From a virus (taxonomy: Duplodnaviria; Caudoviricetes), in IMG/VR virus record IMGVR_UViG_3300032954_000016, positions 1 to 55,166 of that record: 55,166 bases of DNA. One strand, given 5' to 3'. This document shows, piece by piece, positions 21,680 through 54,916 of this stretch (the stretch's first letter is position 1; each line of letters begins with the position of its first letter). A program made the translations under genes and the position numbers. Below the pieces are notes generated by a model, which was given only the letters and a program-made list of their open reading frames with translations, ran no database searches and was not told the DNA's origin.

Positions 21680-23395
21680 TTACGGCAGCACCACGAAGCC
21701 CTGGCGCGGGTCGCCCTGCGCGAAGCTGTACATGAGGCCCGTGTCCACGATGGTCTGCTCCAGGTTGTGGTCGACCCGTTTCTTGACCAGCAGCGAGAGG
21801 CCGCTGTCGGGCTCGGTCACGATCTCCAGCGAGGCCGTCTGCGGGATGTCGCCGAGGATCTTGTTGTAGTCCTGCGGGATGCGCGCCACGAAGATGGCCG
21901 AGGCGCTGTTGCCGGCGAAGCCGACGCCGTTGGCCGCCGTGGTCGGGGCCTGGTTGGGGTCGGTGATGGTCACCAGCGCGCCCGCCGCGTAGGCCGAGAG
22001 CTGGGACTCGAGCACCTTGACGCCGAACAGGACCGGCAGCTCGCCGTCCTCGAACGCGCCGAGGTCCTTCTTGATGAGCGCCAGGATGGCCTTGGCCGAG
22101 AGCAGGTTGCCGTCGGCGAGGATGGCGTCGTGGTAGGCCGAGTTGAGGATGAGGAAGCGCCCGACGTCGGGCATCTTGTTCATCGAGAACTTGTTCTTGA
22201 CCGCGATCACGTTCGACAGGCCCATCGGGTTGGTCGAGGGCGGCCCGACCGGCGCCTTGCTGCCGCACAGGCTGAACGCCGCGGTGGAGACGCCGCTCCA
22301 GGTCGCGCCGAAGAGCGCGGTCAGCAGGTCTTTGTTGACCTGCTCGGTCAGGCTGTAGAGCTGCGCGTCGTACTGCTCGCCCGGCAGGTTGCGGAGCGTC
22401 GCGGACAGGGTCAGGTTGTTGAACAGGAGCGTGACGCCCTTGTAGTTGTTCAGCACGATGTTCACGTCGGTCGTCGAGGCCGTCGAGCGCGTCTGCGTCC
22501 CGGAGGTCTGGACCGTGCCGGCCGGGTTGGCGGCCGTGACGGTCGCCTTCCAGGTGGCGATGGTCGACGCGTCGGTGGTCATGCCGACGCCCGGCACGAA
22601 GGTCGCCACCGTCGGGGGCGTGACGTAGCGGGTGATGACGTTCTGGCCGAACAGGACCGCCTCGGCCCGCAGGTCGGTGGTGATCTTGTCCAGGAACGTC
22701 AGCTTGTTCTTGAGGAACCCGAAGGTCTTGGTGAGCATCACCAGCCCCGTGGCCAGCGTTCCGACCGCCGGGTTGTTGGTGTTGTCCACGTTGTCCGCCG
22801 CGGTGATGACGTCGCGGAACCGGAAGTTCTCGCCCTTGGTGTAGATGGGCATCACGTGCTCGGCCATGACGAGCCCGGTGTCGCGGGCCAGGACCATGGC
22901 CTCCTTCATGCGGCCGTCCCGGATGAGCCTGTCCATCGGCTCGCGGGCCTTGATGTAGCCGTTCTCCAGCGCGTCCTTGAGGCTGGTGCGGACGACCTGG
23001 AGGCCGCCGCGGGTCCCGTCGGTGCCGTCGGTCAGGCGACCGGTGTGGTTCGCGTTGGCGGTCGCCAGCGGCTTGTGCTCGGCCTCCAGCAGCCGGACCA
23101 CGATGTCGGCGCCGATGCCCTGCTCCTCGTACTGCTTGAGGCAGGCCGCCTGGACGACCTCGTCCTTGGGCGCGATGGCGCCGCTGTCCTTGAGCTTCTG
23201 GACGGCGGTGATGATGCTCTGTTTCCCGGCCTCGCGCTGCGCCTGGATCGTCTCCCACTCCCGTGCGGTGACGAACAGGCCGGCGTCGAGCCCGGCTTGT
23301 AGTTTGTCGGGTTCAACCTCGCCCGGGTCGCCGCGCTTGACTGAACCAGCCGCGGTCTTGCAGGCTTTGATGAACACGATTTTGATTTTGTTCAT
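21680..23395 (-). CDS. Major capsid protein (P22 coat-like HK97 fold) with N-terminal scaffold-like region
   Basis: KMPDVGRFLIL...GELPVLFGVKVLES...AIFVARIP...EPDSGLSL motifs; follows protease. Confidence 0.85.
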   Translation of the reverse strand: MNKIKIVFIKACKTAAGSVKRGDPGEVEPDKLQAGLDAGLFVTAREWETIQAQREAGKQSIITAVQKLKDSGAIAPKDEVVQAACLKQYEEQGIGADIVVRLLEAEHKPLATANANHTGRLTDGTDGTRGGLQVVRTSLKDALENGYIKAREPMDRLIRDGRMKEAMVLARDTGLVMAEHVMPIYTKGENFRFRDVITAADNVDNTNNPAVGTLATGLVMLTKTFGFLKNKLTFLDKITTDLRAEAVLFGQNVITRYVTPPTVATFVPGVGMTTDASTIATWKATVTAANPAGTVQTSGTQTRSTASTTDVNIVLNNYKGVTLLFNNLTLSATLRNLPGEQYDAQLYSLTEQVNKDLLTALFGATWSGVSTAAFSLCGSKAPVGPPSTNPMGLSNVIAVKNKFSMNKMPDVGRFLILNSAYHDAILADGNLLSAKAILALIKKDLGAFEDGELPVLFGVKVLESQLSAYAAGALVTITDPNQAPTTAANGVGFAGNSASAIFVARIPQDYNKILGDIPQTASLEIVTEPDSGLSLLVKKRVDHNLEQTIVDTGLMYSFAQGDPRQGFVVLP

Positions 23396-23489
23396 TCGCT
23401 TGTCTCTTTCTCTTTTGGTTGTTGTCGTTGTTCCGCGTTCGGTTCGGCGGCGGTCGCCGTTCGCCCCCGAGGGCAAATCCTGAAAGTCG

Positions 23490-29510: not shown

Positions 29511-30923
29511 TCACGTGACCCTCTCCACCTTGAACCGCTCGCCGGCCGAGAACCGCTCGGCGCCGCCGCCCGCCGACCGCAGCTCGCCCAATCCGGAGAA
29601 CGCGCCGGTGCCGGCATGGAGGTGGTCGAACAGGTAGCGCAGCGCGTCCATGCTGTGGTCGTTCTCCTTCTTGGGCGCGTCCTTGGCCGCCTTGTCGTTC
29701 CACACATAGGACTCGAACTCATTGACATGGTCCACGCAGGACGGGTCGGTCGAGTAGCGCGCCCTGCCGTCGCCGGCCACCTTGAGAGCGTTGCGCACCA
29801 GGTCGCAGCCGTCCAGCACCCGCCCCTTGGCGCCGATCGCGTAGACGCCGGCGTTGTTCAGGTCGGCGATGAGGCCGGCCGCCGCCTCGTCCACGACCGC
29901 GACCTCGCACCTCGTCTCGGCCGGCGGCAGCACGGTGACACCCTCGCCGTCGGGCGGCAAGGCGGCGTAACCGGCCGGGTTCTGGAACCAAAGCCGGGCG
30001 CGAGCGACCACGTCGGCCTGGAGCACGCCGCGCCGGAAGAAGCACCGGAAGCAGTGCAGGCGGCCGTCCCCGTCGGCACCGACCAGCAGGACCACCGCCG
30101 GGTTGGTGTAGCCCTCGTCCAACGCCAGGAACCAGCGCCGCATCTCCTTGTGGTCGCGGACCCGGACGTGCGGGCCGCCGGGCGTCGAGTCGAAGTTGTC
30201 GTACACGGCGCCCTCGGCCGTGGCCCACTGGCCCTCCAGCAGCCTCTTGCGGCGCACGCCGGTCAGGGTGGACTCCAGCAGCCCGATGCGCCGCCGGCCC
30301 TCGGCGGTGATGTTCCCGGCGTCGTCGTAAAGCGCCGGGTTGTCCTTGTGGGTCGACAGCAGCCGCGTCAGCGAGGCCCGGCTCCGAATCCAGTGGCTCG
30401 CGCCGGCCGGGTTGCAGTCGCCGAACACCTGCGGCCACGCCACCACCGCGCCGCGGCCGGTCACGCGGCCGGCGACCATCTCCCACTCGGCCTCGGTGAG
30501 CTGCTCGGCCTGAACCATGTGCGCGAAGTCCCACTCGCTGGAGAGCAGCTTGTCGGCCTTGTCCAGCCCGGCGCACACCAGCTCCGACCCATTCGGGAAC
30601 ACCCACTTCTCGGTGAACTTCTCGCCGCCGTACCGCTTGATGGGCAGGCCGGCGGTGATGGTGTTGAAGGTCCGGGCGCACGAGTCGTTGATGGAGTTGA
30701 ACAGCTTGCGCACCATGATGCCGTGCGCCTTGGGGCGCCTGGCGTCAGAGCAGAGCAGGAAGTCCTTGACGCATCCGGCCCACGTTTTGGAGGTGTCCGA
30801 CGGGCCGCAGAGGATGGCCTCGTGGTCGTGGCAGGTCAGGAGCTGGAGCGAGCCGCCGCGGAACTTGGGGAGCTCCACCGTGACGGTGCGCGCCCGCTTC
30901 GGCTTGGCGGTCAGCTTCGTCAC
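29511..30923 (-). CDS. terL: Terminase large subunit (PBSX-like)
   Basis: GPSDTSKT Walker A variant, GDCNP coupling motif, LEGQW..AEGAVY, LDEGYTNP and DHSMDALRY nuclease motifs; GTG start coupled to terS. Confidence 0.92.
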   Translation of the reverse strand: MTKLTAKPKRARTVTVELPKFRGGSLQLLTCHDHEAILCGPSDTSKTWAGCVKDFLLCSDARRPKAHGIMVRKLFNSINDSCARTFNTITAGLPIKRYGGEKFTEKWVFPNGSELVCAGLDKADKLLSSEWDFAHMVQAEQLTEAEWEMVAGRVTGRGAVVAWPQVFGDCNPAGASHWIRSRASLTRLLSTHKDNPALYDDAGNITAEGRRRIGLLESTLTGVRRKRLLEGQWATAEGAVYDNFDSTPGGPHVRVRDHKEMRRWFLALDEGYTNPAVVLLVGADGDGRLHCFRCFFRRGVLQADVVARARLWFQNPAGYAALPPDGEGVTVLPPAETRCEVAVVDEAAAGLIADLNNAGVYAIGAKGRVLDGCDLVRNALKVAGDGRARYSTDPSCVDHVNEFESYVWNDKAAKDAPKKENDHSMDALRYLFDHLHAGTGAFSGLGELRSAGGGAERFSAGERFKVERVT

Positions 30924-31462
30924 TTGGCCGGCGCCGGGCCGGTCACGGCCTCGGGGTCGACGCTGGACTTGACCACCACCATCAGCGGGCCGCCGCCCTC
31001 GCCGACCAGCTCCTGCCGCTCGCGCCACTCGTCCGGCTGCCGGTTCTTGAGCCAGAAGATGCACGCCGTGGTGTCCGGCGGGTAGTGCTTGACGATGTCG
31101 GTCTTGATGATGCGACCCTCGTACGACTTGATGTCCACGTCGGGATGGCTGTACCCGGTGGCGCGCTGGTAGAGCGACTTGATGACGGCCTCGTCCGCCT
31201 CCCGTTTTCCGAGCTTTAAGGCTTTGCCAACTTCGGGGTGGCGGTGGCGAAGATTGAACACAGCGATGCCGCTTATCCCGAACGCCTCGCCTATCTGCGC
31301 ATCGGTCGCGCCGAGCCTCGCCAATACCTTGGCGATCCGCAGCCGGTCCAGCTTCACCGGTTTGCGCCCGCCGCCTTCGCCCTGGCGGCCGCGCTTAACC
31401 TTGCCGGTGCGCTTGGAGACGGTGCTCGGCTTGCGGGGTTTTCGGCGGCGGGTCGCGCTCAT
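30920..31462 (-). CDS. terS: Terminase small subunit
   Basis: HTH + SLYQRATGY...KHYPPDTTACIFWLKNR signature; directly upstream of TerL. Confidence 0.9.
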   Translation of the reverse strand: MSATRRRKPRKPSTVSKRTGKVKRGRQGEGGGRKPVKLDRLRIAKVLARLGATDAQIGEAFGISGIAVFNLRHRHPEVGKALKLGKREADEAVIKSLYQRATGYSHPDVDIKSYEGRIIKTDIVKHYPPDTTACIFWLKNRQPDEWRERQELVGEGGGPLMVVVKSSVDPEAVTGPAPAK

Positions 31463-31470
31463 CTGACGGG

Positions 31471-31499
31471 GGTATAGCCGGTCGCCGGTTGAATGTCAA
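31471..31499 (-). promoter_or_regulatory. Promoter TTGACA-17-TATACC upstream of terS (near-leaderless)
   Basis: Perfect -35; -10 ends 8 nt before ATG. Confidence 0.6.
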
Positions 31500-32002
31500 C
31501 GCTTTTCCGGCGACGTCGCCGAACCGGCCGCTGCAGCGGACGCCGAGGCGCCGCTGAGCTTGTTGTTCGGCGGATACAGTTCCACCGGCTCCACACCCTC
31601 GCGCAGAGGCTTCGCCCGCTCGAACACGCACTGAATGTCAGACTCCGCCAGTATGCGCCCGACTTCCATTTTGACCGCGCAGTATCCGAAGCGGTGGAGC
31701 GTCGCGTATTCTGTTGGCGTGAACCAGCGGCGGAGTTGTTCCAGCGTGCGGCAGCCGCAGCCGAGATTCATGCCGACGATAGAGAGGCGCAGCACGTTTC
31801 CAAATTGCATCGGCCACGGGACGAGAGCGGCGTATTCTTCCTCCGGTTTGTCCTCGACCCACCGTTGCGAGAACCCTGGTTTCCACGGGCCTCGACCCGC
31901 GGCGTCTTGCACTCGATACACAATCGCCGAACAAGGCGCTGGAGCGAATGAGTGCCCCGCCACGCTGTTTGGCAATTCGGGAGTCTGGGATGGGGCACTC
32001 AT
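31496..32002 (-). CDS. Cassette 1 hypothetical protein
   Basis: Starts inside attC2 and reads through attC1; VYRVQDAAGRGPW motif. Confidence 0.75.
   Translation of the reverse strand: MSAPSQTPELPNSVAGHSFAPAPCSAIVYRVQDAAGRGPWKPGFSQRWVEDKPEEEYAALVPWPMQFGNVLRLSIVGMNLGCGCRTLEQLRRWFTPTEYATLHRFGYCAVKMEVGRILAESDIQCVFERAKPLREGVEPVELYPPNNKLSGASASAAAAGSATSPEKR
31518..31571 (+). repeat. attC-like site 1 (54 bp, terminal/backbone site)
   Basis: GCCGAAC cggcc GCTGCAGCGG..CCGCTGAGC ttgtt GTTCGGC. Confidence 0.85.
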
Positions 32003-32023
32003 CGCTCAGCTTGGTCGTTAGGC
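31926..32023 (+). repeat. attC-like site 2
   Basis: GCCGAAC aaggc GCTGGAGCG..CGCTCAGC ttggtc GTTAGGC. Confidence 0.9.
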
Positions 32024-32241
32024 TACAAGGCATCCTCGCCACCGGGCAGCATGTCCGATTCGATGGTTGGGAAGTTGAGTTTGTCCAGGACGCGATTCAC
32101 GTCCTCCTTTTTTCCGCCGGTCAGTTCGCGGATGATTTTGAAGCATTCATCGAGTGCTTCTTGGGCGTCTCCGAGGTTTTCGATTCCTTCCATTCGGAAT
32201 CGGCCATCCTCGCCGACGATATGATTTAGTGATCCAGCCAT
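32023..32241 (-). CDS. Cassette 2 hypothetical protein
   Basis: ORF fills the interval between attC2 and attC3. Confidence 0.7.
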   Translation of the reverse strand: MAGSLNHIVGEDGRFRMEGIENLGDAQEALDECFKIIRELTGGKKEDVNRVLDKLNFPTIESDMLPGGEDAL

Positions 32242-32249
32242 AAGTTGTA

Positions 32250-32339
32250 GCCTAACCCGGCGCTGGAGAGAACGCCGGGATTGCGTTTCAGTGTTATTCG
32301 ACGCCGCTCTCCCCGGCGTCTCTCAGCTTTGCGTTAGAC
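32250..32339 (+). repeat. attC-like site 3
   Basis: GCCTAAC ccggc GCTGGAGAG..CTCTCAGC tttgc GTTAGAC. Confidence 0.9.
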
Positions 32340-32558
32340 AGCTTTGGGAATCTCAGCTTGTTCCAATTTGTAAATGTGTTTTTGAAGCTCGTAGGTCACA
32401 TCAATTCCTACGCCTTGGGTTTTAACTGCCGGTGCTGTATGGAGAACGCACATAAAGTTGTCCATGACTTCGACCTTCGCGGCTAGTACTTCGTTCTGGT
32501 GGCGCAGAGCACGTATCTCGTTCTGCGCTTCCTTGAGCGTTTCAATCAGTTCGTTCAT
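32334..32558 (-). CDS. Cassette 3 coiled-coil protein
   Basis: Stop TAA lies in attC3 core. Confidence 0.7.
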   Translation of the reverse strand: MNELIETLKEAQNEIRALRHQNEVLAAKVEVMDNFMCVLHTAPAVKTQGVGIDVTYELQKHIYKLEQAEIPKAV

Positions 32559-32562
32559 AGCT

Positions 32563-32654
32563 GTCTAACCAATCAGTGCAGCGAATGGCGCGGAGTCGCT
32601 GCGGGTTCAATTCGGTTGGTCAGCGATGCGCCATCGCTGACTTCTGCGTTAGGA
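32563..32654 (+). repeat. attC-like site 4
   Basis: GTCTAAC caatc AGTGCAGCG..CGCTGACT tctgc GTTAGGA. Confidence 0.9.
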
Positions 32655-32669
32655 CCACCAGTCATCGTC

Positions 32670-32999
32670 CTAGTCGCCATGCTCCGATACAGGGCCTCCA
32701 TCATCCTGCGTCTCGACCTTGTCCGCGATCTGTGGCAGGTCGAAGCGGCTCACCGGTTCATTGCGATAGCGTTGGAGCATTCCGAGCGCGATTTCCTCCG
32801 TCACTGGGTTGATGCTGTAGATTGCTCCCGGCCCATAGAAGCGGGTATATGCCTTGTTCTCGGCCTGGGCCGGCACGTCCACGCGCAGGAACGCACCGCC
32901 GGCGAGTGTGGCCTCACTCACCTTGCCCACGATCTTCTGGTGGCCGAACAGTTCGACCAGTGCCCATTCATTGAAGCTGCTTCCGTTGTCTTTGCTCAT
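32670..32999 (-). CDS. Cassette 4 conserved phage-type protein
   Basis: EWALVELFGHQKIVGKVSE...FLRVDVP...GAIYSINP motif. Confidence 0.8.
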   Translation of the reverse strand: MSKDNGSSFNEWALVELFGHQKIVGKVSEATLAGGAFLRVDVPAQAENKAYTRFYGPGAIYSINPVTEEIALGMLQRYRNEPVSRFDLPQIADKVETQDDGGPVSEHGD

Positions 33000-33003
33000 A
33001 AGG

Positions 33004-33127
33004 TCCTAACAAGCGGATGCACACGAACAGCCGCCCCGCTTGGCAGTTCGGGCGCATCAGGTTTTACTATGGTTTCGGGGCTTTCAAAGTCTCGGTCGGC
33101 GGCTGTCGGTGATCCGCAGCGTTAAGC
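33004..33127 (+). repeat. attC-like site 5
   Basis: TCCTAAC aagcg GATGCAC..GTGATC cgcagc GTTAAGC. Confidence 0.85.
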
Positions 33128-33421
33128 GGCTAAATATGATGCCACTTCCTTTCCTTCGGTTGTCAGTTCCCATGCCCAGCCATATCGCTTCGTGGCCAGC
33201 CCTTTATTTTGTAGGGCGTAAAAACTTTGCACGCTAGCGGGTTTATGGTCATCCCAAGCTTGGCATTGGGGGTAGTTGGTGGTGTGAGGCAGTCCCATCA
33301 TTTTGGCATCTTTTAGCCATCGGATAGCAGCCACCTGTCCAGCCGTTAGCCGCTTAACCACTCCATTCAGCGAACCGCGAGTGGCACTTTCGGTTTGTTC
33401 GGTAACGTATTTTACGCTCAT
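33122..33421 (-). CDS. Cassette 5 protein (winged-helix-like)
   Basis: Starts inside attC6; stop in attC5 core; ALQNKGL...WELTTEGK. Confidence 0.7.
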   Translation of the reverse strand: MSVKYVTEQTESATRGSLNGVVKRLTAGQVAAIRWLKDAKMMGLPHTTNYPQCQAWDDHKPASVQSFYALQNKGLATKRYGWAWELTTEGKEVASYLAA

Positions 33422-33459
33422 AGTTTTGTTATTCGCGGTCGCTGATGTCGGCGTTAGAA
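33352..33459 (+). repeat. attC-like site 6
   Basis: GCTTAAC cactc CATTCAGCG..CGCTGATG tcggc GTTAGAA. Confidence 0.88.
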
Positions 33460-33852
33460 CATTGAGTCATCGTCGTCATCGTCCAGGTCTGGCTCTTGCC
33501 AATCGTCCTCGTAGTTGTAGCGGCGACGATTGAAGTGCGCCCGGTCTTCGATGGCTTTCACGAGCGCCTTTTCTTCCGGCGTGCGTTCGCCTTCCGGTTT
33601 TTCGAGCACGTCGCGATGGCGATAGCGGATTCTTTCGAGTTTCGATTTGTCGTTGAGCGCGAGTTCGGCGTTCTCCTTCGCCACCTTGTATTGCTCGACT
33701 GCCTTGTCCGCGAGTCGCGCTGCTGTCTTGCGGAGTTCATCTACGGCTTCGGGTGTTGTCGCCGAGCTTGAGGACAGACACACCTCGAAGTGGCAGTAGT
33801 CATGTGAGCGCATCACTTTCACGCTTCCGATTTGGATGTCAGGAATTTGCAT
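33454..33852 (-). CDS. Cassette 6 hypothetical protein with acidic tail
   Basis: SVKVMRSHDYCHFEV motif; stop in attC6 core. Confidence 0.75.
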   Translation of the reverse strand: MQIPDIQIGSVKVMRSHDYCHFEVCLSSSSATTPEAVDELRKTAARLADKAVEQYKVAKENAELALNDKSKLERIRYRHRDVLEKPEGERTPEEKALVKAIEDRAHFNRRRYNYEDDWQEPDLDDDDDDSMF

Positions 33853-33858
33853 ACGATG

Positions 33859-33983
33859 TTCTAACAAATCGGTGCAGACCAACAGCCGCCGCCCTCGGCA
33901 TTGGCTGCACCATTGGTTGTTTGATTGGCGGTTTGCATTTCAAAGTTCACTTCCGGCGGCTGTGGCTGACCTCATCGTTAGGT
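33859..33983 (+). repeat. attC-like site 7
   Basis: TTCTAAC aaatc GGTGCAG..CTGACC tcatc GTTAGGT. Confidence 0.88.
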
Positions 33984-33985
33984 GC

Positions 33986-34138
33986 TTAAGGCTCCGAGCA
34001 TACGGTTTTCAATGCATCCCAAGCCGTAGTGCATCCTGGGATGTATTCCTGATTCCATAGCAGGAATATCCACAAAATCATTCCCGGCATCCAAAGTGGG
34101 AAGGCGGCTATAAACAAAACGAGTTTTATCATTTTCAT
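33986..34138 (-). CDS. Cassette 7 small membrane protein (50 aa)
   Basis: MKMIKLVLFIAAFPLWMPGMILWIFLLW; ATGA-coupled. Confidence 0.55.
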   Translation of the reverse strand: MKMIKLVLFIAAFPLWMPGMILWIFLLWNQEYIPGCTTAWDALKTVCSEP

Positions 34139-34380
34139 CTTGGTCCTTCGGTTGCGATTACTTCAGTCAAACACCACCACGCGAGCGGTTCTTCATCAGC
34201 GGCGTCGTGAGGTTTTTCACCCCAGGATTTCTTTTTACCCATAGCGACACGCGCCACATCCGCCGCCCACAAATAGCGTTCGGTCGAGCACCTAACAAAT
34301 CGCTGGACCGAATGGCTATTACGCCGGTCAGTTCCAACGCTGTCTTTGCGCTCAATCGTTTCTTGTTGCATCGTGCTCAT
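34135..34380 (-). CDS. Cassette 7 hypothetical protein
   Basis: Starts inside attC8. Confidence 0.6.
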   Translation of the reverse strand: MSTMQQETIERKDSVGTDRRNSHSVQRFVRCSTERYLWAADVARVAMGKKKSWGEKPHDAADEEPLAWWCLTEVIATEGPR

Positions 34381-34416
34381 TTTACGCACCCGCCATCGGT
34401 CAGTTTTCCGTTAGCT
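34290..34416 (+). repeat. attC-like site 8
   Basis: ACCTAAC aaatc GCTGGACCG..CGGTCAGT tttcc GTTAGCT. Confidence 0.88.
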
Positions 34417-34638
34417 GGCTTTGAGGCGTAGCTTACATTCATGGCACTTGAGAGCGTCTTGCATTGGTGTGACCCACTCGCCGCCGCCATCGTCTCCGCA
34501 TAGCGCGATGCCGTCCTTTACCGCATGGACTACTCGCCCCGCACGCAGGAATGTTGACGGGAGTAGCCAGCTAACAACGCGCTTCAGCGAACGGCCTTTG
34601 GCCGTTCTGCTTCGCGCTCGCCGCAATTTGGTTGTCAT
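34411..34638 (-). CDS. Cassette 8 small zinc-binding protein
   Basis: VVHAV..ALCG...CHEC; RBS and ATG inside attC9; stop in attC8 core. Confidence 0.7.
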   Translation of the reverse strand: MTTKLRRARSRTAKGRSLKRVVSWLLPSTFLRAGRVVHAVKDGIALCGDDGGGEWVTPMQDALKCHECKLRLKAS

Positions 34639-34689
34639 GGTTGCATTCCTTTCTCGTGCTCAGGCCGTCGCTGAGCTCGGTCGTTAGCC
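34569..34689 (+). repeat. attC-like site 9
   Basis: AGCTAAC aacgc GCTTCAGCG..CGCTGAGC tcggtc GTTAGCC. Confidence 0.9.
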
Positions 34690-35066
34690 GCGCCTCGCTC
34701 GCTGGCCCTCGCGGGGCCAGCGTCGGCGGCTTCGATGATTTGCACGATCCTTCGCCTACAATGTTTGTTTCCGTTAAATATGAATTTCGCACTTTCGAGC
34801 GCCATCGGGCTTGTAATATCTCTCCAATCCCAAGGAGCATCACCGAACATTTCGGCCCCGACTTGCACCACGAATGCCGCCGAATCGCTTTTCGGCGCGG
34901 CTAACGGCGAAGCTGCCAGCGCCTTGTTGCCGCTCGGCGCGGCTAACAAGTCGCTGGAGGCGGACATCGCCTGCGGCGACCCTTCAGGGAGCAAGCAACC
35001 ACATGAACCGCAGTAGTGCTGCTCCAACCTTGACGTTTCAAATCCGCATTGATTACATATTTTCAT
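34635..35066 (-). CDS. Cassette 9 protein with N-terminal zinc ribbon
   Basis: CNQCG..YCGSCG encoded within attC10; stop overlaps next ATG in attC9. Confidence 0.65.
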   Translation of the reverse strand: MKICNQCGFETSRLEQHYCGSCGCLLPEGSPQAMSASSDLLAAPSGNKALAASPLAAPKSDSAAFVVQVGAEMFGDAPWDWRDITSPMALESAKFIFNGNKHCRRRIVQIIEAADAGPARASERGAANDRAQRRPEHEKGMQP

Positions 35067-35107
35067 TGCTTGCTCCCTTCAGTTGCCGCTCAGCTTCGCC
35101 GTTAGCC
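34941..35107 (+). repeat. attC-like site 10 (long, 167 bp)
   Basis: GGCTAAC aagtc GCTGGAGGCGG..GGGAGCAAGCAA/TTGCTTGCTCCC..CCGCTCAGC ttcgcc GTTAGCC. Confidence 0.8.
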
Positions 35108-35241
35108 GCCTTGCGTTTGCGTTTCAGGGCGACTGTTGCTTTCTTCCAGTTTTCGCGGGCGGCGCGGCGCTTGGCCTCCGAGGTTGCCTTGCCACCGAGC
35201 CGTCCGAGAGTTTGCGCGGCCTTATTGACATGACCACTCAT
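35053..35241 (-). CDS. Cassette 10 small basic putative DNA-binding protein
   Basis: AAQTLGRLGGKATSEAKRRAAREN motif typical of small phage regulators. Confidence 0.7.
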   Translation of the reverse strand: MSGHVNKAAQTLGRLGGKATSEAKRRAARENWKKATVALKRKRKAANGEAERQLKGASNENM

Positions 35242-35425
35242 AGTCGGAGTCTTGTTTCTCGCCGCTCGCCAGCGCCTCGGCGATTTCGTGCGCGTCTTGG
35301 TCGGCGGCCACTATCATCCGGCTGCCATCGCCGCGGCGAATCGTTGTCTGGCCACCGCGCTCGCTCACCACATACTCGCTGTCATCCGTGTAGTATCCGT
35401 TTCCGCTTACTGTTACTTTTTTCAT
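35222..35425 (-). CDS. Cassette 10 hypothetical protein
   Basis: ATG downstream of cassette-internal promoter. Confidence 0.65.
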   Translation of the reverse strand: MKKVTVSGNGYYTDDSEYVVSERGGQTTIRRGDGSRMIVAADQDAHEIAEALASGEKQDSDYEWSCQ

Positions 35426-35474
35426 TTTCGTTTTTCGGCTCGGCTTACTGGGCCTCGCTCATCTTTCTGCGCTC

Positions 35475-35503
35475 AATATACCAAGCGGTTAGTATATCGT
35501 CAA
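35475..35503 (-). promoter_or_regulatory. Cassette-internal promoter TTGACG-17-TATATT with ATATAC/GTATAT inverted repeat
   Basis: Hexamers, spacer and palindrome seen directly; A-tracts upstream. Confidence 0.8.
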
Positions 35504-35561
35504 CATTTATTTTCACTTTTTTTGACCCTGTTTTATTGGGCTTTTTGATGATTTTGACGGC

Positions 35562-35694
35562 GGCTAACCCGGCGCTGCACAGAACTGGAGCTACGCTCCT
35601 CCAGTTGCGGCAGCGCCGGGTGCATCAATGCCAGTTTTGTAGTGGGACGCGAAATCACGATTTGCCGCTCCAGTCTGTGAGCTTGTCGTTAAGC
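35562..35694 (+). repeat. attC-like site 11
   Basis: GGCTAAC ccggc GCTGCACAG..CTGTGAGC ttgtc GTTAAGC. Confidence 0.88.
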
Positions 35695-35997
35695 GATGCG
35701 TTCTAGTTCGAGCACCTTTTTTACAGTTGGTCGCCACCGCTTTTTAGACTTTGGTTTCGTCCACTCATGGTCATCCCCGTAACGCTCGAAATCGGCCTTT
35801 GAGATTTCGCCAAATGCCAGCACTTGATCTTCGCAGGCTGCATGAAGGAGTATGTCATCGCCGCCGCCCACGTCCTGACAGACGCCGATTACACCTATGT
35901 CGCAAATGATTTCGTAAAACTTCGGACGGCATCGCTTAACAACTCCATGCAGGCGACGTGGAGAACAGCTTCGGGTTTGCGTTGGTTTCGATTTCAT
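35689..35997 (-). CDS. Cassette 11 hypothetical protein
   Basis: Starts inside attC12; stop in attC11 core. Confidence 0.7.
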   Translation of the reverse strand: MKSKPTQTRSCSPRRLHGVVKRCRPKFYEIICDIGVIGVCQDVGGGDDILLHAACEDQVLAFGEISKADFERYGDDHEWTKPKSKKRWRPTVKKVLELERIA

Positions 35998-36054
35998 ATT
36001 TACAGTTTTGGTTGTGCCGAGTCAGGTGACACGCGCCTGATGTCGGCGTTCGGC
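35934..36054 (+). repeat. attC-like site 12
   Basis: GCTTAAC aactc CATGCAGGCG..CGCCTGATG tcggc GTTCGGC. Confidence 0.88.
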
Positions 36055-36257
36055 AACAGGTGCATTTCGTGCCGCCCAAAGATGTCCACGAACCACGCTT
36101 CACGGTGGCCGAATGGTCCGTTTGGTCCGGTGCAGTCGAGCGCCCTGCCACGCTCTGCCATCCTTTCCTCTGTTGTCAGTGTTGGCTTGTTGTTTGGCCA
36201 GCGTTGCCGAACCAATCGGTCCAGCGAACCCGGCGATTGCGTCTCAGTTGTATTCAT
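36000..36257 (-). CDS. Cassette 12 hypothetical protein
   Basis: MNTTETQSPGSLDRLVR starts inside attC13, ATGA-coupled. Confidence 0.6.
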   Translation of the reverse strand: MNTTETQSPGSLDRLVRQRWPNNKPTLTTEERMAERGRALDCTGPNGPFGHREAWFVDIFGRHEMHLLPNADIRRVSPDSAQPKL

Positions 36258-36296
36258 GGCGTTTTGGTCGCCGGGTCGCTGACCTCGGCGTTCGGC
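36206..36296 (+). repeat. attC-like site 13
   Basis: GCCGAAC caatc GGTCCAGCG..CGCTGACC tcggc GTTCGGC. Confidence 0.9.
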
Positions 36297-36847
36297 TTCT
36301 GGAACACGATCCAATGTGATTTGAAGTGCTTCCCGTAGCGGCTGCCGTAGAGCGGCTTTTCGGGAGTTAGCGCGAGGATTTCTTTCACGCTCACCTCGTC
36401 CTCGTTCCACTTGAAAACCAGCGTGCCATTCGGCCGCAGGACGCGGAAGCATTCAGCGAATCCTTTGGCGATCATTTCGCGCCAGTTGCCCCGGAGCACT
36501 CCATACTTTTTTAGTATCCAGCTCGTGTCGCCGTTCCGCTGGATGTGTGGCGGGTCGAAGATGACGTGCCAAAAGTGATTGTCTGGGAATGGCAGCGCCG
36601 TAAAGTCGGCCACGATGTCAGGATTGACCACGATTTCGCGCTCACCGTTTTTTACCGAGCAGTCAGCGGCCAGATGAGTTTCGCGGCGGATGTCCACGAA
36701 CAGCGCACGCGGGTCTTTGCGGTCGAACCAGAACATCCGGCTTCCACAAGCGGCGTCCAGCACAGAAGCCGAACAAGGCGCTGCACCCGCAATGACTGCC
36801 GCGGCGGGCGGTTCAGGCGAGGCGATAGATTTTGACGCGGCAGTCAT
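36254..36847 (-). CDS. Cassette 13 SAM-dependent (probable DNA) methyltransferase
   Basis: VLDAACGSRMFWF SAM motif, ADFTALPF, FDPPH catalytic-type motif, ECFRVL. Confidence 0.85.
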   Translation of the reverse strand: MTAASKSIASPEPPAAAVIAGAAPCSASVLDAACGSRMFWFDRKDPRALFVDIRRETHLAADCSVKNGEREIVVNPDIVADFTALPFPDNHFWHVIFDPPHIQRNGDTSWILKKYGVLRGNWREMIAKGFAECFRVLRPNGTLVFKWNEDEVSVKEILALTPEKPLYGSRYGKHFKSHWIVFQKPNAEVSDPATKTP

Positions 36848-36868
36848 GGGGTGAGCTTGTCGTTCGGC
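36768..36868 (+). repeat. attC-like site 14
   Basis: GCCGAAC aaggc GCTGCACCC..GGGTGAGC ttgtc GTTCGGC. Confidence 0.88.
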
Positions 36869-37059
36869 GCCGTCACTGGTGGTTGAGGTTGACCAGCGAG
36901 AAGAACTCGGCCCGGGTGGCCGGCGTCCCACGACACCGCCCCGTCGCGGCTCGCGTGCCTTCCGGGGTGCCCGGCTGCGAGCCCGCAGCGGACGGGCGCA
37001 GCGCCGGCCGGCACCGGCGCCAAACTCCCGCAGCGATTGATGATTCGTTCGGCTCTCAC
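36844..37059 (-). CDS. Backbone hypothetical protein reading into attC14
   Basis: GTG start; ends APNDKLTP with stop overlapping cassette 13 ATG. Confidence 0.5.
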   Translation of the reverse strand: MRAERIINRCGSLAPVPAGAAPVRCGLAAGHPGRHASRDGAVSWDAGHPGRVLLAGQPQPPVTAPNDKLTP

Positions 37060-37340
37060 GCGAACAGCTCCGGCTGCGGCTTGTGCCAGTTGGCCAGCCT
37101 CTCGAACGACAGCACGGTCTCGCCCTTGCGCCGGCCGCCCCTCCTGCGCACGTGCAGCCCGTCGCGGCGCAGCTCGAACACGTGCAGCTTGAGGACCGGC
37201 TCGTGCGCCGTCGGGCTGACCGCCGGCGAGCCGACGTCGACCGCCTTGACGACCCGGCCGCGCACCCGGTCGGCCGGCCTGCGCCACTGGTCGCGGGGCT
37301 TGATGGTGGCGAACGGCTTGCGCTTGGCGGTCTTGTTCAT
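37056..37340 (-). CDS. Basic hypothetical protein
   Basis: ATGA-coupled to methyltransferase gene. Confidence 0.6.
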   Translation of the reverse strand: MNKTAKRKPFATIKPRDQWRRPADRVRGRVVKAVDVGSPAVSPTAHEPVLKLHVFELRRDGLHVRRRGGRRKGETVLSFERLANWHKPQPELFA

Positions 37341-38518
37341 GGTTTGGGCGATGTACAGTCGGCTTTGTGCTGGCCAAGGCCAGCATATCGGTCAATCCAC
37401 TTTTGATCGAGCTGTCCTTTAGCTGATGGTTTCGGGGGCGGCGCGGCGGCTGCCGGTGTCGGTTTGGGCGGCTTTGGAGCCTTGGACCGGGCCGTTGGGG
37501 CGGCGACCAGCACCGGCGCGTCCTGCGCCAACGTAGGCGTTTTGGCCTTTAAAATACAGTCCCACTCCGGCTGGAGCGGCTTCAGACAATGCGGGCTGAA
37601 CCAGATCCGCTCCCGGGCTGAGTTTTCGCTGTTTCCTGCGGCGGCAGCGTATCCGCCGCTCGCTTTCCATGCAACACAATCCCACTCTTGAGGCATTTGA
37701 TGCTCTCCTTCGTACCCGCAGAGAGCTATTCGCAACAGCGGATTAGTTCCGTTTTCAACCGCCCACTGTTTGACTTTGTCTGAAACTCCGCGAGAGAAGT
37801 CTCCATACACATCATCGTGTCCGTCGGCATCGTAGGGCGGGTCCAAGAGAATGCCTGTCAGCCCTTGACCGAACGTCGCAGCCTTCGTAAGTACACGCGA
37901 CCAATCGCCGCAGCATACTTTGGTATGGCGCATCCGTTCAGCAATCGCCCGGAACCAAGCAACTATATTTTCAGTGTTACTTTCCGAGCCACCCCCTGAC
38001 CACCCGTCAGGTGCGGAACTTGCCGAATCAGCCACCCCCTGACCACCCGTCAGGTGCGGAACTTTCCGAGCCACCCCCTGACCACCCGTCAGGTGCGGTG
38101 CTGAATTTTGTTCCGTCGGATGACAAAAGTTGTCACCAATCCAACATGAGACCCCCCACATCCACCAGCCGGCTATTTTCGTGTCGTAGTAGTCGGGGTC
38201 GTTCTCCATTCGCTTGCGGAACTCCAACCGCTTGTGAAGCCACCGATGCCTGGCGTGTAAATCCGCCTCGTTAATTGGCCAGTCAGCGTGGAGTGCAGTT
38301 TCCTCCGGGGCGAACTTCATCGCACGCCAAGTATTAGCCACATAGCAATCAATATCATTCACAATCTCATTTTTGGGCTTGTGTGGTCGCCGTAGCAGCA
38401 CCGCCAACGAGCCAGCGAACGGTTCGACATAATTACCAACGTCGCCGAGCCGGGACCATATAAGGTCTGCGGCTCGTGACTTTCCCCCAAACCAGACAAA
38501 TGGCGTTTTCAGTTCCAT
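37337..38518 (-). CDS. DNA adenine methyltransferase (D12/Dam class)
   Basis: PFVWFGGKS, YVEPFAGS, NDID, LDPPY motifs. Confidence 0.9.
   Translation of the reverse strand: MELKTPFVWFGGKSRAADLIWSRLGDVGNYVEPFAGSLAVLLRRPHKPKNEIVNDIDCYVANTWRAMKFAPEETALHADWPINEADLHARHRWLHKRLEFRKRMENDPDYYDTKIAGWWMWGVSCWIGDNFCHPTEQNSAPHLTGGQGVARKVPHLTGGQGVADSASSAPDGWSGGGSESNTENIVAWFRAIAERMRHTKVCCGDWSRVLTKAATFGQGLTGILLDPPYDADGHDDVYGDFSRGVSDKVKQWAVENGTNPLLRIALCGYEGEHQMPQEWDCVAWKASGGYAAAAGNSENSARERIWFSPHCLKPLQPEWDCILKAKTPTLAQDAPVLVAAPTARSKAPKPPKPTPAAAAPPPKPSAKGQLDQKWIDRYAGLGQHKADCTSPKP
37988..38098. repeat. Three copies of 29-bp GCCACCCCCTGACCACCCGTCAGGTGCGG inside the MTase gene
   Basis: Copies at 37988, 38031, 38070. 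Confidence 0.9.
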
Positions 38519-52970: not shown

Positions 52971-54916
52971 CGGTCTCCTTTCACCTCAACCTCCAGCACA
53001 TCCGGCGGCGCGTCTTTGAAGTAGGCGCCCATCGGCTCCACGTCCACGAGGATGGCCTGGTCGAGTTTGTTTTGTTTTATCAGATCGTCGAGCCGGCACA
53101 GCAGCGCGACCTTGTTGGCGCGGTCCAGCCGCGAGAGCTCGTCGAGCACTACCAGCCGCAGCGGCGCCTTGGCGGCCAGCCCGACCGACAGCGCGCAGTA
53201 GAGCAGCGCCTTCTCGGTGCCGCTCATCGTCCGGTGGCTGGGCCCCTTCCCGCGCAGCACCACCTCGCCGTCCACGAACTCGACCGGCGCGGGCAGGATG
53301 CCGCCGCACAGGTCGTTGCATAGGTCGAGCAGCGGCCCGACCGACCGCTTGACGCACTCGGCCAGCAGGTCGCCGAGCAGGTCCCGGAGCGCCTGGCCGA
53401 CCTCGGCCTTGGCGTCCAGCTCCTCGGCCCTCTCCCTGGCCTGCTGCGCCTGCCGGGCGCTCGCGGCGTCGGCCACGGCCGCCCGGTGCGCCTCGTCGGC
53501 CTCGCCCAGCGCCTTCGCCGCGGCCTCCCGCCTCGCCTTGGCGGCGTTGTGCGCGTTCCCCGCGGCCATGGAGGCGGTCTCCAGCGCCGGGAGCCTGGAG
53601 TCGGCCTCCCGCGCCGGCGCGGCCCTGTCCTCGCGCTCCTTGAGCGCCGCTAGCTCGCGGTCCACCGCCGCCAGCCGATCGCGGTGGCTGCGGACGCCCT
53701 GCCGATGAAGCGCCTGGTCCTCCACGCGCTTGTCGGCCTCGCGCTTGGCCTTCAGCGCCGCGTCGTAGAGCGGCTTGAGCCTGGCGGCTTCGGCCTCCGC
53801 CGCGTCCCGGTCCTTGGTCAGTGACGCCAGTACGGCGTCCTTCCAACCCTTGGCCCTGGCCTTGCAGGTCGGGCAGCACTCCAGCCGGTCGAACTCTTCG
53901 ACGGCCCTGCGGGCGCGGTCCAGCGCCTGCTTGGCGGCTGCCAGCTTCGAGTTGGCGTCGGCCAGCGCCGCGGCCTCCCTGGTGTTCGACTCCTCAGGCC
54001 GCTCGACGTCCTCGCGCTGGAGCCACTCGGCCAGTTCGGCCCGCTCGGCCGCCAGCCTGGTGCGCGCCGACTGCTCTTGAGCCGTCAGCGGCGTGTAGCC
54101 GGCCGCCTGCGCCTTGGCCTGCTGGAACAGCCGCTCGGCCACGGTGAAGTCGTCGAACGCCGACCGCTCGGCGGCCACGGCCGCGGTGTGGTCCTCCATC
54201 GCCTTGCGCTTCCTGGCTTCCACCAGCCCGAGCGCGGGCGCGTCCTGCCGCAGCGCCGTCGTCCCCAACGCGGTCTGCCGCATGGTCTTCGCGGAGGCCT
54301 TCGCCTCCTTGGTGGTGGTAGCGACCTGCTCGACGAGAGCCTCCAACCACTCCTGCACCGTCAACTTGCAGTCGCCACCATCGAGGCCGGCGTCGCCCCA
54401 CGACTGGCGAACATTATCGGCAAGCTCGTTGACCGCCTTCTCGTGCGCCTCGGTGTGTGGGTCGCACTTGACGTTCTTGAGCGCGGCCACCACGACGTCC
54501 GGCCTGACCTTGTCCAGCGGCGGCGGCGGCAGGGCCTTGAACAGGAACCTGGTCCGCTCCCGGGCGCTCAGCTCCAGGAACTCGTTCGTGCAGAACAGCA
54601 GCGCGGGCGCCTCCAGCCCGCCCTCGAACGTGGTGGAGACCTTACCCTTCCTGTCCCGCGCCCACTCGGCGCCGGCGAACGATCCGTCGTCGGCCTCGCA
54701 CTGCACCGTCAGCGGGTTGCCCGACGCCAGCCCCTCGAACACGTCGCGTGGCGCCTCGAACGCGCCGGGCACCTTGTGCGTCAGGGCCAGGGCCAGCGCC
54801 TCGACGCGGGTGGATTTTCCAACAAAGTTTTTGCCGTGCAGCAGGGTCACGGCAGCCAGCGGCTGCTCGAATGATGAGCCCTTCAAACTAACAGCGGATA
54901 TACTGCGAAGTTTCAT
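52967..54916 (-). CDS. SMC/Rad50/SbcC-like coiled-coil ATPase
   Basis: GKNFVGKS Walker A, CPTC zinc hook, MSGTEK signature, VVLDE Walker B. Confidence 0.9.
   Translation of the reverse strand: MKLRSISAVSLKGSSFEQPLAAVTLLHGKNFVGKSTRVEALALALTHKVPGAFEAPRDVFEGLASGNPLTVQCEADDGSFAGAEWARDRKGKVSTTFEGGLEAPALLFCTNEFLELSARERTRFLFKALPPPPLDKVRPDVVVAALKNVKCDPHTEAHEKAVNELADNVRQSWGDAGLDGGDCKLTVQEWLEALVEQVATTTKEAKASAKTMRQTALGTTALRQDAPALGLVEARKRKAMEDHTAAVAAERSAFDDFTVAERLFQQAKAQAAGYTPLTAQEQSARTRLAAERAELAEWLQREDVERPEESNTREAAALADANSKLAAAKQALDRARRAVEEFDRLECCPTCKARAKGWKDAVLASLTKDRDAAEAEAARLKPLYDAALKAKREADKRVEDQALHRQGVRSHRDRLAAVDRELAALKEREDRAAPAREADSRLPALETASMAAGNAHNAAKARREAAAKALGEADEAHRAAVADAASARQAQQARERAEELDAKAEVGQALRDLLGDLLAECVKRSVGPLLDLCNDLCGGILPAPVEFVDGEVVLRGKGPSHRTMSGTEKALLYCALSVGLAAKAPLRLVVLDELSRLDRANKVALLCRLDDLIKQNKLDQAILVDVEPMGAYFKDAPPDVLEVEVKGDR

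Follow-up and report, generated by a model that had tools for sequence, protein, structure and literature searches.

A phage-borne cassette array with genes on the attC bottom strand and a shared reading frame at its junctions

Introduction

An integron cassette is by definition a gene followed by its recombination site, attC, and it is expressed from a promoter of the integron platform. Chromosomal integrons also contain reverse-oriented cassettes with their own promoters, such as toxin-antitoxin cassettes. Here, we describe a cassette array in the genome of a tailed phage (Duplodnaviria; Caudoviricetes; IMG/VR record IMGVR_UViG_3300032954_000016). The whole record of 55,166 nucleotides (nt) was analyzed and is called the window below. 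The genes of this array lie on the strand opposite to the usual one, and those that lack a stop codon of their own cross the cassette junctions in one shared reading frame.

The closest described systems are found in phages, in class 1 integrons and in synthetic constructs. Clusters of attC sites lacking integron integrases (CALINs) are known from phage genomes, where attC arrays without intI include methyltransferase cassettes (Methyltransf_11 among them) and where phage attC sites were recombined by IntI1 (Qi et al. 2023, Front Microbiol, PMC9892861). The same report counts 17 phage CALINs, and its published examples, TJE1 included, are described with the typical cassette structure. In integrons of class 1, ORF-11 and ORF-18 (open reading frames, ORFs) at attI1 display translational coupling with a stop codon that comes from the GTTRRRY core (review PMC8876359, section 3.1), and short ORFs inside attC relieve the hairpin barrier by termination and reinitiation (Jacquier et al. 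2009, as summarized in PMC8876359, section 3.2). Synthetic attC sites have also been embedded in protein-coding sequence (Nivina et al. 2020, PMC7439510).

Results

The window contains an integron cassette array without an integrase

Fourteen hairpin repeats, e0 to e13, span positions 31518-36868 of the window. The short repeat e0 (54 nt) was not listed in a preliminary description of this DNA. All 14 repeats show attC ends on the + strand (NNNNAAC ... GTTNNNN), with five R′ cores reading GTTC instead of GTTR (e0, e11, e12, e13 and the half-site in the backbone). Folding of both strands yielded paired R and L boxes, an unpaired spacer of 5-6 nt, one-base bulges on a single arm and a variable center, the total length being 54-167 nt. 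The bulges on the AAC arm of the + strand are spaced by ~3-4 bp and then by 5-6 bp after the spacer, which agrees with the aadA1 attC used as a control and with the account of Nivina et al. (2016, PMC5027507).

From the 14 window sites in + orientation we built a covariance model (R1), which also recovered the aadA1 attC of plasmid R100 (39.3 bits, E 4e-7), solely on the aadA1 coding strand. In every one of the 13 cassettes, full complementarity is seen between the left half-site and the R″ of that cassette (7/7 bases, plus 1-6 further paired), while only 3 of 13 attC sites match completely the R′ that is adjacent to them today. This pattern represents the footprint of cassettes joined by crossover between G and TT. 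The region is a true integron cassette array. Repeats other than attC were rejected as a reading, given the cross-match of R1 to the aadA1 site, the half-site complementarity and the relatives linked to IntI that are described below.

The record is a complete phage genome, with direct terminal repeats and 100% completeness (CheckV). No match to PF00589 or TIGR02249 was obtained in the complete 55,166-bp record, which is thus without a tyrosine recombinase and without an integron integrase. Therefore, the window array is a CALIN, and it comprises 14 attC sites and 13 cassettes.

The cassette genes lie on the attC bottom strand

According to Nivina et al. (2016, PMC5027507), the extrahelical bases of attC are on the AAC-arm side in the top strand and on the opposite arm in the bottom strand, usually as G and T in the latter. 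The bulges of the window sites occupy the AAC arm on the + strand and the opposite arm on the − strand, reading G and T in e12 and most other sites; those of the aadA1 control fall on the AAC arm of the coding strand. The side of the bulges and the aadA1 control therefore identify the + strand of the window as the attC top strand.

All supported cassette genes were found on the − strand, that is, the attC bottom strand, and top-strand genes are present in 0 of the 13 cassettes. A typical cassette has its gene on the top strand and its attC downstream; here, the attC lies upstream of the gene. Because the genes are on the bottom strand, the cassette reads attC and then gene in the mRNA sense, the reverse of the textbook cassette, and takes the form C + attC + gene + ...NNNAA. 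This structural cause was absent from the preliminary description, and several features follow from the bottom-strand geometry. The start region of a gene is its own attC, with 8 starts inside it and 4 within 8 nt after it. The cassette ends in the TTA that follows G at the crossover, which supplies an ochre stop codon in one frame, and a gene without its own stop crosses the crossover into the attC of the next cassette.

ORF length alone does not tell the coding strand, since both strands stay open. A codon log-odds classifier served to assign the strands; its training set consisted of 223 long ORFs from viral loci, and it was correct on 88.5% of 454 held-out 80-codon fragments. For the 13 window cassettes it returned 11 bottom-strand calls, no top-strand call and 2 undecided calls. 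BLASTP between arrays gave the longest protein-level matches in bottom-strand frames. Genes on the + strand were rejected: such ORFs span attC sites, have negative coding scores and show no homology.

Two collections served for comparison. Both were scanned with one pattern from the bottom-strand arm of three window attC sites, which gave at least 119 viral-contig stretches and at least 120 one-per-species bacterial stretches (loci with L numbers below). With R1, 58 + 66 attC sites were located in the viral loci, and 80 of the at least 120 bacterial loci (L201-L240 left out) yielded 134. Arrays with at least two R1 matches on one strand were used, leaving out L042 (a duplicate of L064), L151 (mixed strands) and gaps above 1500 nt (11 bacterial and 1 viral, the latter containing intI). 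The classifier assigned the 101 cassettes of the viral arrays, window included, to the bottom strand in 87 cases and to the top strand in 6 (8 undecided), whereas the 81 cassettes of bacterial arrays of the same attC family gave 13 bottom, 60 top and 8 undecided calls (Fisher P=4e-25). Pfam matches on the bottom strand were DUF3850 in L086 (E 9e-23) and, in L095, N6_N4_Mtase (E 1.5e-22) with a start inside attC; 5/10 bacterial top-strand ORFs had Pfam matches.

In complete integrons, the strand that R1 identifies as the top strand is directed away from the 5′ end of intI (bacterial L153, L146 and L182; viral L086, L050, L101 and L090), and the IntI proteins of L086 and L050 exceed the TIGR02249 cut-off (347 and 275.5 bits versus 265). 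The viral contig L086 (33-7274) thus carries a bona fide integron integrase. Its 13 cassette genes all occupy the attC bottom strand and share the direction of intI, toward which they point, and a 96-amino-acid ORF starting in the first attC fills the space expected for attI. An "inverted integrase" type was rejected for this contig: in that type, intI is located on the attC strand, and in L086 it is not. In the IntI-like gene of L101 (129-1061), the range given to tblastn includes a stop codon; either a pseudogene or inaccurate coordinates could explain this.

Read-through genes share one frame at the junctions

We refer to the frame in which the core AAC is read as Asn as frame 1. Among the 87 bottom-strand genes of the viral arrays, 24 end ahead of the next core, 14 have the core TAA as their stop and 49 read through, 45 of these in the Asn frame, 3 in frame 0 and 1 in frame 2. 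Clustering at 40% identity (82 clusters from the 87) left 41/45 in the Asn frame (Poisson-binomial P=1.5e-12), and these 45 are spread over 18 arrays (17 loci). The preliminary description had proposed a fixed junction frame for the window and had named frame statistics across homologous arrays as a check, with random frames as the contrary outcome. The frames are not random, and in viral contigs a fixed frame at the junctions is a genuine and general property of this attC family. At non-TAA cores, 24/27 read-through genes are in frame 1; therefore, codon bias against CTA/TTA is not the whole cause of the rule. The 60 bacterial top-strand genes stop before the core (40) or on the core TAA of their own attC (15), and 5 read through.

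Starts inside attC are distributed over frames 0, 1 and 2 as 25/1/10 (viral sample, n=36; P=9e-6). A frame-1 stop lies inside attC in 119/129 viral versus 90/117 bacterial sites, and in the viral sites it adds a median of 9 residues after the Asn. The fourth base of the core, the wobble position in the Asn frame, is T in 72/129 viral versus 102/117 bacterial attC sites. No association was found between frame-1 genes and downstream internal starts (13/30 versus 12/27, P=1.0), indicating no selection for particular neighbors, and this fits free assortment. Proteins that start inside attC (window e5, e7, e8, e11 and e12; L086 and L095) display an N-terminal motif like S-L-x-R-x-V-R/K/S. This motif arises because the L″/R″ arm is read with GTT as Val (24/46 of the ORFs starting before R″).

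Starts, stops and stop-start proximity in the window

The eight starts that had been placed inside the cassette's own attC were all recovered there, with ATGs at 32002, 33421, 34380, 34638, 35066, 35997, 36257 and 36847 in e1, e5, e7, e8, e9, e11, e12 and e13, respectively. GTG 34389 is an alternative to ATG 34380, and GTG 36931, upstream of the attC, is a further candidate start besides ATG 36847. The other five cassette genes start 4-8 nt after the attC (32241, 32558, 32999 and 33852) or 136 nt after it, behind an own promoter (35425). The five stops reported at the core TAA (32334, 33122, 33454, 34411 and 35689) indeed coincide with the TAA in NNNTAAC, which forms the end of the cassette in the bottom-strand geometry (its final three bases), and the stops at 32023, 32670 and 33986, reported as at or just before the core, lie 0-16 nt before the core TAA. 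All six genes described as read-through do read the core AAC as Asn (APNDK, KPNAE, LPNAD, AANGE, AANDR and PPNNK). Only five of them are credible: the ORF 36844..37395 (APNDK) was rejected as a gene, with a coding score of −22.6, a G+C content at third codon positions (GC3) of 0.60 and an overlapping ORF, 37056..37340, with a GC3 of 0.99. The presence of 5/5 read-through genes of the window in the Asn frame corresponds to P ~0.009 (null 1/3 for GAAC cores and 1/2 for TAAC cores). The junction pattern observed earlier was confirmed and is far beyond chance. The three ATGA overlaps noted at 36844, 36254 and 34635 are all present, two of them between supported genes.

A swap of C-terminal tails at the junctions, also proposed earlier, is borne out by the DNA methyltransferase of cassette 13, whose last 9-10 residues are encoded by e12 and whose homologues end at the junction. 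The protein is 56% identical to the methyltransferase of Corynebacterium phage Adelaide, which extends no further than residue 187, the position of the junction. Together with the range of the phrog_954 match (Table 1), this assigns residues 1-25 to e13 and the last 9-10 to the e12 of the neighbor. Residues 1-26 of the cassette 1 protein are encoded by e1, and its phrog_1106 match begins at residue 27, just past e1.

At 10/13 junctions of the viral sample that bring an Asn-frame gene up to an internal start, the stop overlaps the start or is at most 15 nt away from it, in 5 cases as exact ATGA; inspection of the window by hand gave 4/4 (e12, e11, e9 and e8). Over all junctions of the window, stop-start proximity was found at 5/13 (3 ATGA including one within a cassette, one 2-nt gap and one 14-nt overlap). 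In 28/129 viral versus 1/117 bacterial attC sites, the first frame-1 stop is part of an ATGA from which a long ORF starts, showing that such starts belong to viral arrays. The starts at e13 and e1 are buried in stems according to the predicted folds (P unpaired ~0.01), and the Shine-Dalgarno sequence of e9 is paired. The center of e9 encodes a CxxC...CxxC N terminus. The other core of e4 (GTTAGGA, − strand) supplies AGGA 5 nt ahead of ATG 32999. We infer translational coupling, as a reasonable reading, for a subset of the junctions and not for all of them.

Cassette genes and their surroundings

The coordinates of the features are collected in Table 1. No Pfam match above the curated cut-off was obtained for 14/15 cassette proteins, and PHROG matches were found for 3/15. 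The array contains a single promoter-like site (35475..35503) and no excess of terminator-like sites. This site makes cassette 10 (35102-35688) the sole cassette with a sigma-70-like promoter; its two small ORFs overlap, the second being rich in lysine and arginine, and judged from sequence they may form a self-expressed pair. Upstream of e9, two GGCTAAC cores are 42 nt apart (34899-34947), and no partner hairpin was found for the first. R1 also gave a weak match at 23340-23443 (14.1 bits, E 0.35), far from the array, which is probably due to chance.

The array is flanked by a gene for a D12-class DNA methyltransferase on one side and by terS/terL on the other, and it adjoins terS. Its G+C content is 55.6%, compared to 67.2% for the rest of the genome. 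In e0, the window's last attC, the G+C content is backbone-like (74%). In the related phage L095 (terL 45% identical), the position upstream of terS is likewise taken by an array, made up of different cassettes (L095:8574-10138). A cassette docking site just upstream of terS thus appears to be conserved in at least two distantly related phages, and e0 looks like a resident docking site. A search for relatives among viral contigs with terL confirmed no relative, and blastn of the whole array against isolated phages matched the methyltransferase core only. The bacterial attC sites scoring best under the model derived from the window (L166, L122, L161, L139, L174, L182 and L183) are mostly from Verrucomicrobiota metagenome-assembled genomes, a weak hint at what the host group of the phage might be. 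Elsewhere in the genome, a block of low G+C content (9989-12472; 51-53% in a 67% genome) holds an 827-amino-acid ORF on the − strand without a Pfam match and may be an exchanged tail or receptor-binding module. A gene for tRNA-Arg (anticodon TCG) is located at 53913-54005 on the + strand.

Table 1. Features of the cassette array and its neighborhood. All attC entries are based on fold, R1 model match and coordinate check, with the attC top strand being the + strand of the window. aa, amino acids.
Feature	Position	Strand	Basis
D12-class DNA adenine methyltransferase (backbone, upstream of array)	37337..38518	-	Pfam PF02086 E 2e-9
Cassette 13 gene, DNA methyltransferase, 197 aa	36254..36847	-	Pfam Methyltransf_11; phrog_954 E 5e-70 over residues 26-188
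Cassette 12 gene, 85 aa, Asn-frame read-through of e11 core	36000..36257	-	ORF, coding score
Cassette 11 gene, 102 aa, stop is e10 core TAA	35689..35997	-	ORF, coding score
Sigma-70-like promoter TTGACG-17-TATATT with TG	35475..35503	-	Promoter scan
Cassette 10 first gene, 67 aa, own promoter	35222..35425	-	ORF, promoter scan
Cassette 10 second gene, 62 aa, Asn-frame read-through of e9; overlaps ATG 35066 by 14 nt	35053..35241	-	ORF
Cassette 9 gene, 143 aa, Asn-frame read-through of e8; coding score ~0	34635..35066	-	ORF
Cassette 8 gene, 75 aa, stop is e7 core TAA	34411..34638	-	ORF, coding score
Cassette 7 first gene, 81 aa	34135..34380	-	ORF, coding score
Cassette 7 second ORF, 50 aa, hydrophobic, ATGA overlap with first gene; weak coding score -3.0	33986..34138	-	ORF
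Cassette 6 gene, 132 aa from ATG 33852, stop is e5 core TAA	33454..33852	-	ORF, coding score
Cassette 5 gene, 99 aa, stop is e4 core TAA	33122..33421	-	ORF, coding score
Cassette 4 gene, 109 aa	32670..32999	-	phrog_29525 E 8e-12
Cassette 3 gene, 74 aa, stop is e2 core TAA	32334..32558	-	ORF, coding score
Cassette 2 gene, 72 aa, TAG touching e1 core	32023..32241	-	ORF, coding score
Cassette 1 gene, 168 aa, Asn-frame read-through of e0; end 34 nt before terS	31496..32002	-	phrog_1106 E 3e-7, residues 27-131
Terminase small subunit terS (backbone, downstream of array)	30920..31462	-	phrog_309 E 1e-39
Terminase large subunit terL	29511..31064	-	tblastn to phage terminases; 45% identity to L095 terL
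attC e0, 54 nt, 74% GC, "anchor" site 55 nt upstream (mRNA sense) of terS start	31518..31571	+	R1 58.1 bits; fold
attC e1, ATG 32002 in stem	31926..32023	+	R1, fold
attC e2, core TAA is stop of 32334..32558	32250..32339	+	R1, fold
attC e3	32563..32654	+	R1, fold
attC e4, core TAA is stop of 33122..33421	33004..33127	+	R1, fold
attC e5, contains ATG 33421; core TAA is stop of 33454..33852	33352..33459	+	R1, fold
attC e6	33859..33983	+	R1, fold
attC e7, contains ATG 34380 (ATGA at first frame-1 stop); core TAA is stop of 34411..34638	34290..34416	+	R1, fold
attC e8, contains ATG 34638 after AAGGA; ATGA overlap with stop of 34635..35066	34569..34689	+	R1, fold
attC e9, 167 nt, contains ATG 35066, GGGAG Shine-Dalgarno in stem	34941..35107	+	R1, fold
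attC e10, core TAA is stop of 35689..35997	35562..35694	+	R1, fold
attC e11, contains ATG 35997, 2 nt past stop of upstream read-through gene	35934..36054	+	R1, fold
attC e12, ATG 36257 in loop; ATGA overlap with methyltransferase stop	36206..36296	+	R1, fold
attC e13, methyltransferase ATG 36847 buried in stem	36768..36868	+	R1, fold

Discussion

Taken as a whole, our results are best explained, with a probability that we put at about 60%, by a true CALIN whose genes lie on the attC bottom strand, share the Asn-frame convention and are translationally coupled at a subset of the junctions. The array would be transcribed with the − strand operon of the phage. Owing to the frame convention, any cassette order, made by an integron integrase of the host or of a phage, would be translatable without gene fusions. 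An Asn-frame gene that runs into an attC with an internal start would have its stop on or beside that start (ATGA), and the terminating ribosome would open the attC hairpin and could reinitiate.

Several points weigh against this explanation. The comparison sets were found by the window's own attC pattern, so that one attC family was sampled; the classifier is wrong in ~1 call in 9; and the window is without an integrase. Regarding polarity, only 5/14 sites have a − strand fold of higher stability than the + strand fold, the opposite of the bottom-strand trend reported for mobile integrons. Reversed polarity is also not a rule for all phage arrays: the single R1-detected attC of phage TJE1, seen with filters off while default filters gave nothing, lies on the gene strand. 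Regarding coupling, the earlier suggestion that the junction frame keeps it intact may hold for a subset of the junctions; close stop-start pairs make up 10/13 of those at which an Asn-frame gene meets an internal start. Over the real junctions of the viral sample, overlaps or distances of at most 15 nt were found at only 13/57, with gaps above 15 nt at 44/57 and above 60 nt at 32/57. Stop-start overlaps are also seen within a cassette (34135/34138) and in the backbone (37337/37340 and 38518) and are thus a general habit of this phage. The accessibility of AUGs inside attC sites did not differ significantly from the attC average (0.48 versus 0.39, P=0.066). Shine-Dalgarno-like motifs are no commoner at internal starts than background (6/36 versus 12%), which fits coupling and fits also a host that does not use Shine-Dalgarno sites. 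Finally, the ATGA counts of 28/129 and 1/117 are not a test of coupling and mostly reflect that the bacterial attC sites are without bottom-strand genes.

The many distant junctions would also be expected if the frame convention served safe termination only, with stopless cassettes ending soon and without fusion, no hand-over of ribosomes and independent downstream initiation on A-rich leaders. Consistent with this, frames 0 and 2 would enter the next gene at ~9/87 junctions each versus 2/87 for frame 1, and the starts often follow CAAAAC-like A-rich stretches, 18/36 being predicted unpaired. However, 8/36 internal starts lie in strong stems without a Shine-Dalgarno site and would be hard to initiate unaided, and the closeness of frame-1 stops to internal starts argues for a hand-over. 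We regard termination alone as an unlikely explanation, although one to be taken seriously. The frame itself could, in a different account, be a by-product of the NNNTAAC core without any selection at the junctions, since frame 0 meets a stop there and frame 2 a rare Leu codon (CTA/TTA). The T cores split accordingly into 14 core stops, 21 frame-1 genes and 1 frame-2 gene, and a wobble position at the fourth core base fits the relaxed identity of this base in viral arrays. Cores with G, C or A as the fourth base, however, leave frame 0 open (GAA or CAA) and frame 2 without a rare Leu, and frame 1 still prevails at them; codon bias alone was rejected as the cause of the frame rule on this count (24/27). 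Core codon bias also does not account for the avoidance of frame 1 by internal starts (1/36), and we consider a mere by-product quite improbable.

Shared ancestry could account for the grammar if the array were a fossil, with cassettes captured once and immobile since then in a few related phages. The window does lack an integrase, and all viral loci were found by a pattern from this one attC family. Against such a history, 82/87 cassette proteins are unrelated at 40% identity, other cassettes occupy this site in the related phage L095, all 13/13 cassettes show perfect half-site complementarity, and several viral contigs carry integron integrases above the family cut-off. A fossil array is accordingly very improbable.

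Building on a CALIN of bottom-strand genes with a shared Asn frame and coupling at some junctions, a broader proposal can be made tentatively, with somewhat less than even confidence. Some phages and phage-borne integrons, L086 for example, may keep a pool of reverse-polarity cassettes with attC as the 5′ leader and a universal junction grammar. By this grammar, genes would run into the next attC in the Asn frame and find a stop there, starts would be confined to frames 0 and 2, and cassettes in any order would be translated as an operon. The attC would then act as recombination site, start region and stop supplier at once, and the integron would shuffle accessory genes upstream of the packaging genes. 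The phage arrays of opposite polarity obey a frame rule across the recombination point, and bacterial arrays of the same family do not. Should these observations be borne out, phage-associated cassettes would constitute a distinct, phage-adapted pool, and such cassettes would be mis-called by annotation pipelines in which genes are expected on the attC strand. The arrays would also offer natural cases in which recombination sites lie within coding and start regions, and the control of translation of a neighboring cassette by the attC mRNA hairpin would become a directly testable question.

A literature search, with subscription journals and supplements outside its reach, yielded no description of whole arrays of bottom-strand genes, of starts inside a gene's own attC or of a shared junction frame. 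The phage CALINs of Qi et al. (2023, PMC9892861) resemble the window in being integrase-less attC arrays with methyltransferase cassettes. The window and the related viral contigs differ from them, as they are described in that report, in the location of genes on the bottom strand, the starts inside attC and the fixed junction frame. With ORF-11/ORF-18 (PMC8876359, section 3.1), our proposal shares a frame that crosses the crossover, a stop from the core of the next cassette and the handing of ribosomes to the cassette gene. As presented in that section, that system is a short platform leader ORF at attI, on the top strand and for the first cassette only, whereas the window has full-length genes at attC × attC junctions on the bottom strand and throughout the array. 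The attC mini-ORFs (PMC8876359, section 3.2) are comparable in that the attC hairpin of the mRNA hinders ribosomes and translation through the hairpin with reinitiation restores the next cassette. They are extra mini-ORFs in arrays of canonical polarity, with attC downstream of the gene; in the window, the cassette's own gene starts in its own attC. In the synthetic coding attC sites (PMC7439510), attC structure and protein coding likewise share the same DNA, but those sites were engineered, while the attC arms of the window are natural and encode N-terminal leaders (often S-L-x-R-x-V-R/K/S) and C-terminal tails.

The reverse-oriented cassettes of chromosomal integrons have their gene on the strand opposite to the usual direction of the array, as in the window. 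Such cassettes are exceptions in top-strand arrays (13/81 in our bacterial sample, with no frame rule), whereas in the window and its viral relatives whole arrays are reversed and mostly promoterless. Phage attC clusters, stops supplied by the core and reinitiation ORFs inside attC were already known; the reversed polarity of a whole array and the shared junction frame appear new within the literature searched.

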